From NCBI GenBank assembly GCA_963726195.1, contig CAVSBO010000003.1, positions 480,001 to 544,000 of the forward strand: DNA of 64,000 bases, written 5' to 3'. The translations under genes were made by a program, and so were the position numbers. The DNA is from Candidatus Thorarchaeota archaeon. GTDB lineage: Archaea > Asgardarchaeota > Thorarchaeia > Thorarchaeales > Thorarchaeaceae. Positions 29,289-41,521 of the stretch are shown here, piece after piece; positions within the stretch are counted from its first letter, which is position 1; every line of letters starts with the position of its first letter. A model generated the notes under the pieces. The model did no database searches. It saw only the letters and a program-made list of their open reading frames with translations, and had not been told where the DNA came from.

Positions 29289-31466
29289 TTGACTCCGACC
29301 GGAAAACATCCTGCAGGAAAGAAAGCCAAGAAAGCTGAAACAGCAAAGACTGCGAAGAAGGCACGTCCAGAGAAGGCCGTCAAGAAGAGCGGCTCCGTCA
29401 GGGCACCAAAGAAGCTGGCTGCGGGAAGGAAGGCAAAGAAGAGCGGCCGAGCAAAGGCTGCAAGCAAGCCTGTATCCACAAAGACTGCACCTGGAGTCGA
29501 AGTTCCAACTGAAGAGTCTGGTGAGATTCGTCAGGGTACAATAGCCAAGTTCATGCGCAAGCGAACTCAGCTTGTCGGTTTCGAAACCGGGCTCAATAAG
29601 CACACTCAGTATGCAATTGAGTTCCTCGATAACTCCGCCGACGCAGTTGAGAGCCTATGGTGGAAACAAGAAAGAAAGCCTAGGCTCAGTGACCAGCTCG
29701 ATCCGAAACTGCAAGAAGAAATCAAAGAGAGACTCAAGGATCAGCTTACGGACACAATCGCTTTCAGCAAGAAGATTGAGAAAGATGTTCGAGATGAAAA
29801 GCCCGTCGACATACCACCAAGACCGAAAGAGAATCTCGAAGCACACCTCACCCGATTCAGGAAATTCCTCGTACCCTTCAGGAGTTTCATCACAAAGCAT
29901 GAGCCTCTTATTGTGATTCAAGTGACAGAGGTGCTAATGCCGGACCTAGTCCCGGTCGACCAAGAAGAAGGATTCAAGGTCTACGAGTTCATTTGCTTTG
30001 ACACCGGTATCGGTATGGTTCCAGCAGACCTGGAGAGATTTGGCATCTATCTTGCATCCAGTAAGTCTGAGCATCTGAAGCAGACCAGAGGAAGTCAAGG
30101 CTTCGGTGCGCCGTCTGCTTTTAGTGATGCTCAGAACACCACTGGCAAGCCAATATTCGTGGTCACCAAGAGATTCAACAGCGACAGAACGACCGTGGCA
30201 GAATTCTACACGACCACTGCCAACACGAAGGAGTATGTCAATGGGCCCCTAGAGATGGATCTTCCACTGGAGCATGGTACGTACGTGAAGCTCTACTATC
30301 TCAATATCCAGTACAAGCGGGGCTATGCTGATACCTATGCTGAAATGGCATCCCTCTTGGACCCACATATCACGATAGTATTCATAGACCCTTACGGGGA
30401 GATACACGTCTATCCGCGTCGAGTCGGTGCCGTCCCAGACGAACCAAAGTATGCCCAAGCCCATCCTGCGAGCATAAGAATAGGGGAGTTCCAAGACCTG
30501 CTCCGTGAGACCACAGAACGTGACCTACAAGGATTCTTGACGAGGGGCTTCTGCAGACTCAGCTCAAACAAAGCCAATGCAATTCTGGAGAAAACAAACA
30601 AGGAACTTGGAATCCGCAAACTCGATAAGATAAGCGGCCGAACGCCTACCGATTCTCTGTCGAAGACTGAGATAGAATACCTCTACAAGTCCTTCTCGAG
30701 CGAAGAATATATCGCACCGCCGACTGACACTGTGGTTCCCGTGGGAGAGGAGGTCTTCGAAAAAACCATCAGGTCTGCCTTCAAGCCCGAATTCGCAGCT
30801 GCGATCACAAGGAAGCCGACCTCGGGCAAAGGGCTTTCATTCGCCGTAGAGGTATGTATCGCTTATGGCGGTGAAATAAAGTCTGCATCTTCTGCCAATG
30901 CCGTGCTTTGGAGATACGTCAACAGAGTACCCAAGCTCAGGGACAACAGCGACTGTGCCACATGGAAGGCAACCGCTTCAGTAAACTGGAAGAACTACAA
31001 GCTTGACGTATTCGACAACGGTATACCAAGAGGACCCGTGATGCTCTTCATACATGTGTGTGGTGCTTACGTCCACGTCATGTTCAAGGGACAGAGCAAA
31101 CAGGCTCTCGCGGAAGATGAGGTACTTATCAGAGAAATCAAACTCGCGCTCGAAGACACGGGAAGGAAGTTCAGGTCCTTCATCACAAAGCGGGACACTG
31201 CGCAACGCAAGGCGAAAAGAGCAGGTATTCTCGCGATGTACGCAGACCAGTTTGCTCACAGTCTGGTGACAATCGCAAATGATGGCAAACGCAAAAAGCT
31301 ATACGATGCTGAAGTTGTCGCACAGAAGCTCAGGGACGCCATATCGGGCTTCGAACTTGAGGCCGATGAAGAAGAGGTTGGAATGGACGTACTCGGTGAA
31401 GAGCTGGTTTCAGGTTCCTCTGCCAGCGAAGAAGAAGGCTTCTCATCTGGGGGCAAGGATGAATAG
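29289..31466 (+). CDS. top6B: DNA topoisomerase VI subunit B
   Basis: GHKL motifs EFLDNSADA, DTGIG, RGSQGFG; HP, RYVNRVP, W.NY, V.FK..SK; Lys/Ala-rich N-tail and acidic C-tail. Confidence 0.95.
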   Translation: MTPTGKHPAGKKAKKAETAKTAKKARPEKAVKKSGSVRAPKKLAAGRKAKKSGRAKAASKPVSTKTAPGVEVPTEESGEIRQGTIAKFMRKRTQLVGFETGLNKHTQYAIEFLDNSADAVESLWWKQERKPRLSDQLDPKLQEEIKERLKDQLTDTIAFSKKIEKDVRDEKPVDIPPRPKENLEAHLTRFRKFLVPFRSFITKHEPLIVIQVTEVLMPDLVPVDQEEGFKVYEFICFDTGIGMVPADLERFGIYLASSKSEHLKQTRGSQGFGAPSAFSDAQNTTGKPIFVVTKRFNSDRTTVAEFYTTTANTKEYVNGPLEMDLPLEHGTYVKLYYLNIQYKRGYADTYAEMASLLDPHITIVFIDPYGEIHVYPRRVGAVPDEPKYAQAHPASIRIGEFQDLLRETTERDLQGFLTRGFCRLSSNKANAILEKTNKELGIRKLDKISGRTPTDSLSKTEIEYLYKSFSSEEYIAPPTDTVVPVGEEVFEKTIRSAFKPEFAAAITRKPTSGKGLSFAVEVCIAYGGEIKSASSANAVLWRYVNRVPKLRDNSDCATWKATASVNWKNYKLDVFDNGIPRGPVMLFIHVCGAYVHVMFKGQSKQALAEDEVLIREIKLALEDTGRKFRSFITKRDTAQRKAKRAGILAMYADQFAHSLVTIANDGKRKKLYDAEVVAQKLRDAISGFELEADEEEVGMDVLGEELVSGSSASEEEGFSSGGKDE

Positions 31467-33682
31467 TGGCGGGAGAGAAGGAGAACAGCCAGCCTGAGCA
31501 GACCACCCTCGGAGAGCTCGTCGAACGAAAGAAGTCGGGGAAACATAAAATGAAGTCAGCGAAGAGCAACAAGCAAGCTCAGAAAGGCAGCATTGCCAGT
31601 TCACATGGCAAGAAGACCAACAAGAAACCGGATTCTGCAAAACCAAAGAAGAAACAATCCTCGAAAGCCGCGCCCACCCCGAAGGCGGCAAAGCAGAAGC
31701 TGCCCCGTGGCAAGCCCGGAAAAGAGAAGAAAGAACAAGCAACAGAAGGACTTAGCACTAAAGTTGCCCCGGCCGTTCTAGCTCAGGAGGGCACTCCTCT
31801 GAATCTCTTGCCAGGTGTGGGAGACAAGCTGAATCAGAAGCTAACCTCTGCAGGTTACGACTCAGTAGAGAAATTGTCCAAGGCGAGGGCCGATGCAGTC
31901 TCACGTAAGGTCAAGGGTCTGGACATAGAGGAAGCGAAGGAGATCATTCACACTGCCACAGAGTATCTTCATGGCAAGCTCGCTGCGGAAGAGGTGTCAT
32001 TAGAGGAAGCGGCTACTCCAGCCGGTCAGACAGGCCATCCATCTGCTGGCGAGAGTGCAGCTCAGACCGGAGCCGCAAAGTCGGCTGAAGAAAGTGCGAA
32101 GGCGCCAGAATACGATATTAAGCTCACTGAGTTGCCAGGAGTTGGCCCAAAGCTTGCCGAGAGATTCAGAGAGGCAGGATATGATTCCGTCGCACGCGTT
32201 TCGAGATCCCGTCCCGACGCTCTGGCACGTACTGTCAATGGTCTCAGCAAAGATCGCGCCAAGTCTATTGTCGCCGCTGCCAGGGAGGCTATCACCTCCA
32301 GGCAGCTCGCGGAATTAGCAGAAGAGGCTGCGAAGACACCTTCAGAGGCGAAGAAGGTCAAACCCGAAGCTGGAAGCAAGAAACGAGGGAAAGCAGAGAT
32401 TCCAGAGGCAGCCATCTCACCCCTGCTGCGAAAAGCAAAATCCAAGCAGCCGATTGAGAGACACCCGAAACCCGTTACCAAAAAGTCAGGGCTCCCTGTT
32501 CCTGAGGCAGTCATTGAACTGCGAAAGGAATTGAAGGCGCGTTATCGTGCTGCGGAAAAGGCCGAAGCAGCCGCAGGAGAATCGGAAGCATCTTTCGCTC
32601 AAGGCACTGTGCAAGTCGCCAATCTCACATCGGACGAGACCATCGCAAGGTTGGTTGAAGCCGCTTTGGAGGTACTCAATGAGACAATGACCACTGGCCG
32701 TCCCTCGTTCGAGATACCGAGCAGGTCCTCTGACAACATTGTCTGGGACGAAATCAAAGACTTGCTGCTTCTTGGCATGCGCACCATATCTCGGCCCTAT
32801 CACTCTCTTGCATCAGTTTTGGACGCGACAAGGACTGCCCGAGTCATGGAGATTGTCTACCAGCTTCTGAAATCCGGTCTCCATGCAACGAAAAGGGAAC
32901 TCTACTATGCAGATGTCAATCTGTTCAGGGACCAGAGATACAGTGACAAAATCATTGAGGACGTTGCTTCGATGCTGCCGACAACTCGTGACAGCATCCA
33001 CGTTGTGGCAGCCGCAAGAGGCTCTGCAATGGGAAGGATTGTCATTAGAGATGCAGGCGACAGAATAGACCTCACACAAATGGGTACGGGCGGGTGGGCT
33101 ATAACGCCTTTCTTGGACCAGGTCGAAATAGTCGAAAGTGATGCGGAGTTCATTCTTCTTTCGGAAAAGGATGCAGCAGTCATGAGGCTGGCAGAAGCCA
33201 AGTATTGGAACAAGCAGCCCTGCATAGTGATTACTGGGAAGGGATCAGGCGACATAGCCACGAGGGCGTTCCTCAAGACAATGGTGAAGGAGCTTGAAAT
33301 CCCAGCATTCGCTCTGATGGACTCAGACCCCTACGGCCATTATATCTATTCGGTCTTTCTGAGAGGCAGCAAGCGGCTCAGCTATGAATCACCTTTCATA
33401 GCCACGCCGGAGCTCAAACTTCTGGGAGTCCTCAGTAGAGACCTAGATGAATTCAAAGTCCCGAAGAGCGTCCGCATTCCCATGGAGCCTGCTGACATCA
33501 AACGTGTGAAAGAGATGCTTAAGGAGCCGTTCGTGCAGAAGAACGATCCTTGGGTCGAAGACCTGCAGTTGATGCTGAGACTCAAAGAGAAAGCAGAGAT
33601 TCAAGCTTTTGCAAGTCACGGCTTTGAGTATCTGACAGATACTTACATTCCACGGAAACTGGAAACCGGCGACTGGATTTAG
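31466..33682 (+). CDS. top6A: DNA topoisomerase VI subunit A (Spo11 homolog) with long N-terminal extension containing two HhH domains
   Basis: KRELYY catalytic Tyr, EKDA, GKG..D.ATR, DSDPYG, KAEIQA; two LPGVG.K....L/F..AGYDSV repeats near 31796 and 32117. Confidence 0.95.
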   Translation: MAGEKENSQPEQTTLGELVERKKSGKHKMKSAKSNKQAQKGSIASSHGKKTNKKPDSAKPKKKQSSKAAPTPKAAKQKLPRGKPGKEKKEQATEGLSTKVAPAVLAQEGTPLNLLPGVGDKLNQKLTSAGYDSVEKLSKARADAVSRKVKGLDIEEAKEIIHTATEYLHGKLAAEEVSLEEAATPAGQTGHPSAGESAAQTGAAKSAEESAKAPEYDIKLTELPGVGPKLAERFREAGYDSVARVSRSRPDALARTVNGLSKDRAKSIVAAAREAITSRQLAELAEEAAKTPSEAKKVKPEAGSKKRGKAEIPEAAISPLLRKAKSKQPIERHPKPVTKKSGLPVPEAVIELRKELKARYRAAEKAEAAAGESEASFAQGTVQVANLTSDETIARLVEAALEVLNETMTTGRPSFEIPSRSSDNIVWDEIKDLLLLGMRTISRPYHSLASVLDATRTARVMEIVYQLLKSGLHATKRELYYADVNLFRDQRYSDKIIEDVASMLPTTRDSIHVVAAARGSAMGRIVIRDAGDRIDLTQMGTGGWAITPFLDQVEIVESDAEFILLSEKDAAVMRLAEAKYWNKQPCIVITGKGSGDIATRAFLKTMVKELEIPAFALMDSDPYGHYIYSVFLRGSKRLSYESPFIATPELKLLGVLSRDLDEFKVPKSVRIPMEPADIKRVKEMLKEPFVQKNDPWVEDLQLMLRLKEKAEIQAFASHGFEYLTDTYIPRKLETGDWI

Positions 33683-40234: not shown

Positions 40235-40471
40235 ACGAAGCTCATCGCGATGTACAGAGAGAGGAACCAGATTTCGTGGCAAGTCAATATAAGCCAGCGA
40301 TCTCGTACGGTCGACAAATTCTGGAGCACAATCAAACAAGATTGACAATTGGTTGACCGGAGCGCACCGTGTCTTAGTGCTGTTTTTATATCGGTCAGAG
40401 CGACAGAATCATAACCATATCCTTGATTTACTCGCGCGAGGATACCCAAGCACCTGAGGGAGGCAATCAAA

Positions 40472-41521
40472 ATCCCAAAAGATAAGGACTCTGAAGATAA
40501 CGCGGACGCAGACTACGAGCAATTCGAAGGCGAAGCTCCAACAAAGGAAGCTGTCGGGCAACCAGACAGCGGGGCAAGCGTCACTGGTCTCGACATGACT
40601 GACCTTCCGGGTGTCGGCCCGGCCATTGCTAAACGCCTCTTGGAAGCGGGCTACAGAAGCGTCGAGGCCATTGCAGTAGCATCTCCTCCCGAACTCGCCG
40701 CAGCAGGCTCGATAGGCGAAACCACCGCGACAAAGATAATCAAGGCGGCAAGAGAGATGCTGGACATCGGGTTCGAGACCGCCGACTTGTGTCTAGAACG
40801 CCGAAAAAACGCAGGCCGAATCACAACCGGGTCAAAAGCACTTGACGACTTGCTGGGTGGAGGTATAGAGACCCAAGGCATCACTGAAATGTATGGCTCG
40901 TTTCGATCCGGAAAGACACAGATTGCTCACCAGCTCTCGGTGAACATTCAGCTTCCCCCCGACAAGGGAGGGTTGGGTGGAACTGCAATCTACATTGACA
41001 CAGAAGGTACATTCAGACCTGAACGTCTTGTCGACATGGCAGAAGCTCTGGGCCTAAACATAGAAACAGTCCTGAAGAATGTGGTATGGGCACGGGCTTA
41101 CAACTCCGACCATCAGATACTGCTATGTGATCAAGCCATGGAAATGGCTCAGGAAAAAAACGCAAAGCTCCTGGTGTTGGATTCAGTAACGAGCCACTTC
41201 AGGGCAGAGTATACGGGAAGAGGTACCCTCGCCCCGAGACAGCAGAAACTGAACAAGCATCTCCACCATCTGCAGAGAGGTGCGGAAATCAACAATATGG
41301 CAGTGTACATCACGAATCAGGTGATGTCGCGTCCAGATGCATTCTTTGGGGACCCGACCGCGCCCGTCGGTGGTCACGTCTTGGCACATGTCCCGCAAGT
41401 GCGCTGTTACATACGGAAGTCTAAGGGTGAACGAAGAATCTCCCGCCTAGTTGACTCGCCAAACCTGCCCGAAGGCGAAGCTGTCTTCACTGTTGTGAAA
41501 GATGGCATCAGAAACGTCTAG
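40472..41521 (+). CDS. radA: DNA repair and recombination protein RadA
   Basis: N-terminal Hh[44 protein letters not shown]; frame is open 41 codons upstream of ATG 40595, back to an ATC following GAGGGAGG. Confidence 0.97.

Follow-up and report, generated by a model that had tools for sequence, protein, structure and literature searches.

A 64,000-nucleotide stretch of the genome of a Candidatus Thorarchaeota archaeon (GenBank assembly GCA_963726195.1, contig CAVSBO010000003.1, positions 480,001 to 544,000; hereafter the window) encodes a canonical A subunit of DNA topoisomerase VI (Top6A) preceded by a long N-terminal arm. The arm is specific to its lineage, bears tandem helix-hairpin-helix modules, (HhH)2, whose number varies among relatives, and begins with a candidate clamp-docking tip. 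Topoisomerase VI is the archaeal ancestor-type of plant topoisomerase VI and of the meiotic Spo11 complex, and the means by which it locates and retains its DNA substrates are under active study. To our knowledge, tandem (HhH)2 arrays on a topoisomerase have so far been seen as particular to Methanopyrus topoisomerase V; the type IIB enzyme described here possesses such an array, with a copy number that is evolving between genera. Literature searches, with most subscription journals outside their coverage, found no published description of this Top6A architecture, and database entries for its homologues are named either 'helix-hairpin-helix domain-containing protein' or 'Type 2 DNA topoisomerase 6 subunit A'.

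A topoisomerase VI A subunit with an N-terminal arm

The top6A gene occupies 31466..33682 on the plus strand as a single stop-free open reading frame (ORF) of 738 amino acids (aa) plus stop, and its orthologues are 61-81% identical in all same-family genomes searched. Pfam recognizes, in order, two HHH_5 domains (E 2.8e-17), TP6A_N, the all-beta element Topo_VI_alpha, and the TOP6A-Spo11 Toprim domain. The core, aa 441-738, comprises a 5Y-CAP domain (TP6A_N, PF04406; E 9.4e-20, aa 455-513; 32828..33004, plus strand) with the catalytic tyrosine motif RELYY at aa 477-481, and a Toprim domain (PF21180, E 8.5e-53, aa 562-732; 33149..33661, plus strand) in which the motifs SEKD at 566 and DSDPYG at 619 contain E567 and D619-x-D621. 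Y481, E567, D619 and D621 are invariant in an alignment of 35 orthologues, which is the source of all conservation values given below, and aa 404-738 align to Sulfolobus shibatae Top6A (2zbk_A; E 2.9e-57). The residues ahead of the core (aa 347-440; 32504..32785, plus strand), for which AlphaFold2 (AF2) predicts helices at 347-369 and 389-410, align to the N-terminus of the same S. shibatae protein and are probably the N-terminal helices that bind Top6B. TopoVIA of Asgard archaea and eukaryotes is described as having an additional helix at its N-terminus (PMC9665070).

The B subunit is encoded directly upstream. The top6B gene (29289..31466, plus strand) specifies 725 aa that comprise a Lys/Ala-rich N-terminal tail (29289-29510), a GHKL ATPase, a transducer and an acidic C-terminal tail (31330-31463). 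Its Pfam transducer match is strong (Topo-VIb_trans, E 4.2e-42) and its HATPase_c_3 match weak; the N-box EFLDNSADA and the G1 box DTGIGM can be read directly in the translation. The TAG stop of top6B overlaps the GTG start of top6A at 31466 (TAGTG), and the gene arrangement predicts that the two genes are co-transcribed and translationally coupled. An alternative in-frame ATG is present at 31550; the GTG at 31466 is favoured, since a start at the ATG would leave out the conserved motif at aa 12-19, which is encoded upstream of it. The acidic Top6B tail contains a motif, ETETD..GSDLVADVPLG, that is conserved throughout the family but was not found when the C-termini of two other Asgard Top6B proteins were examined; lying beside the basic arm of Top6A, this tail could conceivably modulate it.

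The ORF encodes a true topoisomerase VI catalytic subunit, and ATP-dependent strand passage by an A2B2 heterotetramer would be expected of the enzyme. Since it is encoded behind an ATPase-competent Top6B, it is a topoisomerase subunit rather than a Spo11-type break maker. An earlier reading of this DNA by a model, made from the sequence only, had called it a Spo11 homolog, which is right as a statement of homology and not of function. That reading had also described an intact Top6A core behind two repeats in one uninterrupted ORF of 738 aa and about twice the normal length; translation and Pfam confirm the arrangement, both quoted repeat peptides lie in frame, and the protein has about 345 more N-terminal residues than canonical Top6A. 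The coordinates it gave, 31790-32310, fit the span from the start of the first module to the end of the second, placed here at 31787-32311.

The arm begins with a short linear motif, SQPEQTTLGELVE (aa 8-20; 31487..31525, plus strand), which resembles a PCNA-interacting protein (PIP) box by conservation, motif likeness and a model with PCNA, as discussed below. It is followed by a Lys-rich tail predicted to be disordered (aa 21-107; 31526..31786, plus strand; predicted local distance difference test, pLDDT, <50). Together, aa 1-107 contain 28 K+R versus 9 D+E, a net charge of +19, and K/T-rich tracts occur at the matching place in the Top6A tails of relatives. The first (HhH)2 module (aa 108-170; 31787..31975, plus strand) matches Pfam HHH_5 and scores 64.5 bits against a profile of these modules. 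A disordered acidic/Ala-rich linker (aa 171-215; 31976..32110, plus strand; net charge -5, pLDDT ~40), of variable length among relatives, leads to the second module (aa 216-282; 32111..32311, plus strand), which is better conserved and basic (84.3 bits, net charge +5). Finally, a Lys-rich linker (aa 283-346; 32312..32503, plus strand; net charge +8) ends in the motif K-x-SGLPVP, with SGLPVP at aa 341. Within this motif S341 is invariant and K339, L343 and V345 are conserved in at least 90% of orthologues; the N-terminal parts of Top6A from three Asgard genomes outside the family showed no such motif.

The hairpins of the modules read LPGVG and KGLD in module 1 and LPGVG and NGLS in module 2. 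Both hairpin glycines are retained in module 2, where G225, G227, K229, G238, Y239, R244, R247 and G259 are invariant. AF2 models each module as a five-helix fold (pLDDT 81-89 for module 1 and 89-94 for module 2) and the linkers between as disordered; the two modules are thus predicted to fold independently of each other, joined by a flexible linker.

The distribution of the fusion was surveyed with the whole protein in 25 genomes of the GTDB family Thorarchaeaceae (the window's own and 24 others, in 16 genera), in one genome of the sister family within that order, and in 15 genomes from other Asgard families. Every one of the 25 family genomes encodes an extended Top6A with HhH matches, and HHH_5, TP6A_N and Toprim are combined in every one of the best 120 database matches listed, all of them Thorarchaeota-like. 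An in-frame fusion that recurs in 25/25 family genomes and at least 120 database proteins is far beyond chance. In the single sister-family genome and the 15 other Asgard genomes, Top6A open frames are ~400-480 aa with no arm match, and no HhH module occurs in four Top6A sequences extracted from outside the family. The fusion is therefore a stable family-level trait of Thorarchaeaceae, kept in close relatives, whereas the sequence-only reading had named its absence there as an outcome that would refute the idea, though not found in the sister family. Most genera have two modules, one has three and three have four; one genome has five and another seven, the open frames of module-rich Top6A reaching 954 aa. 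Adjacent modules within one array are each other's closest relatives, which indicates that the arrays grew by tandem amplification.

The Top6A modules are generic mobile HHH_5 units with the fold of the RadA N-terminal domain (RadA-N). Among solved proteins, the best sequence match to module 2 is residues 615-686 of topoisomerase V (E 5.5e-12), followed by Pyrococcus furiosus RadA (3.8e-8), a family X polymerase, Haloarcula marismortui L32e and Methanococcus voltae RadA. In a search of 1.84 billion representatives, among the best 125 matches scanned, HHH_5 was found on 124, a Rad51 domain on 6 and L32e on 5; the remainder include S25e, a protein kinase and many HhH-only proteins. The HHH_5 module is widely re-used on nucleic-acid-associated proteins. 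Three giant proteins among the matches (P0127, P0196 and P0144; 2086-3135 aa) were considered as giant Top6B subunits and rejected, being M23-peptidase/SLT proteins with HHH_5 modules.

Modules close to those of Top6A occur in two to four tandem copies on L32e, and also on S25e and a Ser/Thr kinase (P0124, P0128, P0129, P0133, P0131). The genome that contains the window encodes an Rpo6 whose C-terminal Rpb6 domain is preceded by an N-terminal HHH_5 module and a Lys-rich linker (G000:C4:382340-383032, minus strand), and ORFs of 211-235 aa with a similar module are found across most genomes of the family; a 2026 paper notes that Thorarchaeal Rpo6 has a long, structured N-terminus (PMC13257274). 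The same genome encodes a 536-aa multi-pass membrane protein with a C-terminal, cytoplasmic-looking HHH_5 module (G000:C3:56800-58407, plus strand), which forms a tight clade with those of eight other family genomes.

Proposed role of the arm

The observed domain identities, conservation and distribution, together with the generic nature of the modules, point to a DNA tether, perhaps one docked on the sliding clamp, as the probable role of the arm. The knowledge of DNA binding in the HHH_5 family and the conserved basic residues are the basis for proposing that the basic tracts and (HhH)2 hairpins would bind the backbone of duplex DNA without sequence preference. The two arms of an A2B2 enzyme would then raise its local affinity for DNA and lengthen its residence on the substrate, and they may aid capture of the second duplex where two duplexes cross, a task that the tandem (HhH)2 array performs in topoisomerase V. 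Variation of copy number (2, 3, 4, 5 and 7) by tandem amplification fits a dosage-type role in DNA binding. Of the functions proposed in the sequence-only reading, extra non-specific DNA-binding modules is the best supported, and we likewise infer it.

The tip of the arm may also dock the enzyme on PCNA, which would place it at replication forks; we regard this as tentative, and somewhat doubtful on balance. The PIP consensus is Q-x-x-[LIM]-x-x-[FYW]-[FYW]. A motif of the QTTLGELV type (aa 12-19 in this protein, between Lys-rich flanks) is present in 24 of the 25 complete family N-termini; the pattern in every one of these N-termini is a basic stretch, then [VI]-Q-x-T-L, and mostly then G-E-[LV]-[VIL]. 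Q12, T14 and L15 are conserved in at least 90% of orthologues and form the sole conserved island in the low-complexity tail; of these, Q12 fits the consensus, as does L15. The genome's own C-terminal PIP boxes read QTSLTDFL (PolD DP2), QRSLTDYF (FEN1), QTALTQFL (PolY) and QATLEQWV (an XPG-like nuclease); the Top6A motif is similar to those of PolD DP2, FEN1 and PolY and to the sequence QATLGEML of a GNAT protein. A complex was modelled between the single PCNA of the genome (30-sequence alignment) and aa 1-45 of Top6A, also with an alignment. Three runs scored 0.79, 0.79 and 0.81 (median 0.79) versus 0.00 for the best of three controls, and the score mark is one that 58 of 80 solved complexes attain, as against 2 of 110 mismatched pairs, counts that are only roughly valid here because custom alignments were used. 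The runs share at least 65% of contacts, with a partner pLDDT of 53. In the modelled interface, Top6A residues 8-16 and 18-20 contact PCNA residues 40, 43-47, 123-128, 226 and 242-249; these line the canonical PIP groove, formed by the interdomain connecting loop and the C-terminal tail. The model is support for clamp docking, not proof of it. Our searches found no paper reporting a PIP interaction between Top6 and PCNA; the nearest report is that topoisomerase VI subunits co-purify with NucS from Pyrococcus abyssi extracts (PMC4929162).

Two further proteins of the genome, neither of them a known partner of PCNA, have C-termini that look like PIP boxes. One, of 1120 aa, has a GNAT acetyltransferase domain at its N-terminus and ends in MVQATLGEML (G000:C3:438423-441782); the other, a DUF2797 protein, ends in QTGLLDFL (G000:C4:273452-274519).

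Several points weigh against a clamp-docked DNA tether. Its three elements, namely DNA binding, tethering with processivity, and clamp docking, are all inferred. The motif has L18 and V19 at positions 7 and 8 in place of the aromatic pair of canonical PIP boxes, whereas the bona fide PIP boxes of the genome keep an aromatic residue at position 7; in several genera these positions are non-hydrophobic (QMTLDAAN, QTTLGEHE, QSTLLEHD). The high score of the PCNA model may reflect likeness to the many PIP-PCNA complexes already solved, and not binding. The full-length AF2 model, built from the 35 orthologues, has a mean pLDDT of 52 and a poor core, because the alignment is shallow and too uniform; it is confident for the two HhH modules only and uninformative on docking of the arm to the core. 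A second, compact topoisomerase VI operon is present in the same genome, and the armed enzyme may divide the labour with it. Finally, (HhH)2 domains can also mediate protein-protein contacts, and NusA AR2 is among the structural matches.

This last point leads to the alternative that the modules are protein-protein adaptors, for example pairing with the Rpo6 module or with other HhH-tagged proteins and recruiting topoisomerase VI to transcription or to other machinery. NusA AR2, a protein-binding (HhH)2 domain, is a close structural match, and similar modules are found on Thorarchaeal Rpo6 and the membrane protein and, elsewhere, on L32e, S25e and a protein kinase. The hairpin glycines and the basic residues typical of contact with the DNA backbone are conserved, however, Lys-rich tracts flank the modules, and amplification to seven copies is more in keeping with avidity for a polymer than with one-to-one pairing; we therefore consider adaptors unlikely.

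Topoisomerase V has apurinic/apyrimidinic (AP) and deoxyribose phosphate (dRP) lyase activity in three of its twelve (HhH)2 domains, and one or both modules of the arm might carry such an activity, making a combined topoisomerase and repair enzyme. The closest solved match to module 2 is a topoisomerase V repeat, the invariant lysine K229 follows the first hairpin, and topoisomerase V itself combines both activities (PMC9489208). Nothing in the present data, however, identifies residues 615-686 as one of its lyase domains, hairpin-adjacent lysines are common in non-catalytic HhH domains, and the number and sequence of the modules vary freely between genera, all of which makes a lyase improbable.

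RadA and the origin of the modules

The modules closely resemble RadA-N in structure. A single module superposes on the RadA N-terminal domains of P. furiosus, M. voltae and Methanococcus maripaludis at 0.9-1.3 Å (54-58 residues, 35-44% identity); for 1pzn, 3ntu and 1t4g the fit is 0.9-1.1 Å over 54-55 residues, and module 2 fits 1pzn at 1.1 Å over 54 residues. The modules are 38-42% identical to the RadA-N encoded in the window itself. The radA gene lies at 40595-41521 (plus strand), with the N-terminal peptide quoted earlier and 6.9 kb downstream of top6A, in agreement with the ~7 kb of the sequence-only reading. That reading had gone on to suggest that the repeats link the break-forming enzyme physically to the recombinase. 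Such a view would have the modules mimic RadA-N and couple topoisomerase VI to RadA or its partners; shared fold and Pfam family, together with the presence of radA within ~10 kb of top6A in 20 of the 25 family genomes, mostly downstream and on the same strand, speak for it.

The comparisons within and between genomes argue otherwise. Within the genome, the profile of the Top6A modules scores the Rpo6 module at 65.9 bits, RadA-N at 53.0 and the membrane-protein module at 51.9, so that Rpo6 outscores RadA-N; Odin-type RadA-N reaches 58 bits vs 53 for the Thorarchaeal RadA-N. Among solved structures no RadA matches as well as the topoisomerase V repeat, and a Rad51 domain is found on just 6 of the best 125 global relatives. 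A tree of the modules is largely unresolved because it rests on 60 columns (92 of 150 inner branches open) and does not tell which way modules passed between Top6A, Rpo6 and the membrane protein. In this tree six Thorarchaeal RadA-N rows nevertheless group with three rows of other Asgard genomes in an exclusive, Asgard-wide clade of nine, and monophyly of all RadA-N is not rejected by the approximately unbiased (AU) test (p-AU 0.43). A single clade of Top6A modules and Thorarchaeal RadA-N is rejected (delta lnL 169, p-AU 0.0003), and with it recent copying of the modules from radA. Forcing the Top6A modules alone into one clade costs delta lnL 77 (p-AU 0.066), so that a single origin is neither shown nor clearly rejected.

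The likeness to RadA-N thus holds for family (HHH_5) and fold and fails for specific kinship, since the modules fall outside the RadA-N clade and are as near to those of Rpo6 and the membrane protein as to RadA-N. With the phylogeny run, the repeats group with generic mobile HHH_5 domains, an outcome that had been named beforehand as counting against a tie to the recombinase. Unlike RadA-N, the modules are followed by a Top6A core and not by a RecA core, and no free FxxA motif of the BRC or polymerisation type occurs in the arm, where the sole F..A in aa 1-440, FREA at 234, lies inside a module helix.

Gene order is equally uninformative as to function. Between top6A and radA lie a Zn-ribbon/TPR gene and another gene, both on the opposite strand, and then ABC-transporter ORFs; the two genes are not one operon. 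In the sister-family genome, which lacks the fusion, radA is 2 kb downstream of top6A, whereas in two Odin-type genomes the genes are hundreds of kb apart. Because the sister family has the linkage without the fusion, linkage is an order-level synteny older than the fusion and no evidence of a functional tie. Finally, the enzyme has a full ATPase partner, and its breaks would therefore be transient. The physical link to RadA is unsupported, and we consider it as improbable as a lyase; the arm carries no message on the coupling of meiotic breaks to a recombinase. We note in passing that the radA frame is open for 56 codons upstream of its ATG (40427-40594), a stretch that is acidic and without ATG, GTG or TTG.

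That the long ORF is an artefact of a chimeric assembly, a missed frameshift or a wrong start, with the real Top6A beginning at about aa 340-400, is scarcely credible and effectively refuted by conservation: the source is a metagenome-assembled genome (88.9% complete, 19 contigs), and an internal start might still yield a short Top6A isoform, but the same in-frame architecture recurs in independent assemblies of 16 genera and at least 120 database proteins, the arm contains conserved folded domains and two conserved motifs, and the top6A start overlaps the top6B stop.

Other topoisomerase VI forms and comparison with known systems

The second topoisomerase VI operon of the genome has no arm. 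It encodes a Top6B-like protein of 525 aa overlapping a Top6A-like protein of 351 aa (G000:C16:46330-48944, minus strand). Both have full Pfam domains, and the A subunit is ~30% identical to the Top6A of the window. The closest solved Top6A of this compact subunit is that of Methanosarcina mazei (E 3e-61), whereas that of the extended subunit is the S. shibatae enzyme. A compact copy is found in most Thorarchaeota and in several other Asgard genomes. DNA gyrase is reported to be absent from Thorarchaeota (PMC9348778).

In other Asgard families the Top6B transducer lies inside open frames of 4185, 4191, 3473 and 2293 aa. These giant subunits were found by a Pfam transducer search of five chosen genomes; a phylum-wide search with Top6B at E 1e-40 missed them. 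The 4185-aa protein has a K/T-rich C-terminal tail containing KQTTLDEIS, near-identical to QTTLGELV. Searched with the Thorarchaeal module profile, the 4185-, 3473- and 2293-aa proteins gave no match; the repeats are accordingly of a different type, and the idea that they are the same module as in the Thorarchaeal arm is rejected. The giant Top6B thus resembles the armed Top6A in having a very large appendage on an Asgard topoisomerase VI with a near-identical QTTL-type motif, and differs in carrying it at the C-terminal end of the B subunit and in its length, which is about 10x greater.

Two other arrangements were seen among Asgard operons. In one Asgard family, f9 (for example G114:C63:9949-12465 and G068:C1:87830-90421), matches to Top6B are split (query 1-353 and ~390-582) within frames of 1000-1180 aa, which suggests a large insertion such as an intein. 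At G007:C16:12222-16115, top6B and top6A are in the same frame with one stop between them, the reported open frame of 1364 aa being 705 + 1 + 658.

Taken with the giant Top6B, the arm raises the possibility that Thorarchaeal topoisomerase VI is coupled to the replisome. The motif QxTLGE[LV][VI] would dock the A subunits on PCNA while the Lys tracts and (HhH)2 modules hold nearby duplex, and the same design would have been built on different subunits in two Asgard lineages. We hold this, like clamp docking by the motif itself, to be tentative and somewhat doubtful. If true, it would imply strong selection for tethering topoisomerase VI at forks in gyrase-less, histone-bearing relatives of eukaryotes. 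Should the arm tether the enzyme to DNA and PCNA, it would offer a possible link between topoisomerase VI and the replisome in Asgard archaea, a natural test of how accessory arms tune the processivity and targeting of type II topoisomerases, and portable modules for enzyme engineering, as has been done with the HhH domains of topoisomerase V.

The armed Top6A shares the 5Y-CAP tyrosine, the acidic Toprim residues and the operon with top6B with the canonical archaeal Top6A of S. shibatae (2zbk_A, 389 aa), Methanocaldococcus jannaschii (1d3y) and M. mazei (2q2e_A). The PIP-like motif, the two Lys-rich tracts, the two (HhH)2 modules and SGLPVP of the Thorarchaeal arm are all missing from these solved enzymes, from the sister family and from the 15 other Asgard genomes searched. 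In the type IIA enzymes, the C-terminal domains of GyrA/ParC and of eukaryotic topoisomerase II are likewise accessory, non-catalytic appendages for DNA binding or targeting. The likeness is one of analogy: these domains have unrelated folds (a beta-pinwheel or disordered), they belong to another enzyme family, and no homology is implied.

The closest parallel is topoisomerase V of Methanopyrus kandleri, a type IC enzyme with 12 tandem (HhH)2 domains, in which a topoisomerase is also fused to tandem (HhH)2 modules. Those domains wrap around DNA, enhance relaxation and can lend processivity to other enzymes (PMC9489208). The catalytic domains of the two enzymes are unrelated (type IIB versus type IC), and the arrays differ in position, being N-terminal in Thorarchaeal Top6A and C-terminal in topoisomerase V, and in build, with 2-7 modules joined by long disordered linkers in the former and 12 packed modules in the latter. 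Unlike topoisomerase V, the Thorarchaeal arm adds Lys-rich tracts and a terminal PIP-like motif to its (HhH)2 array.

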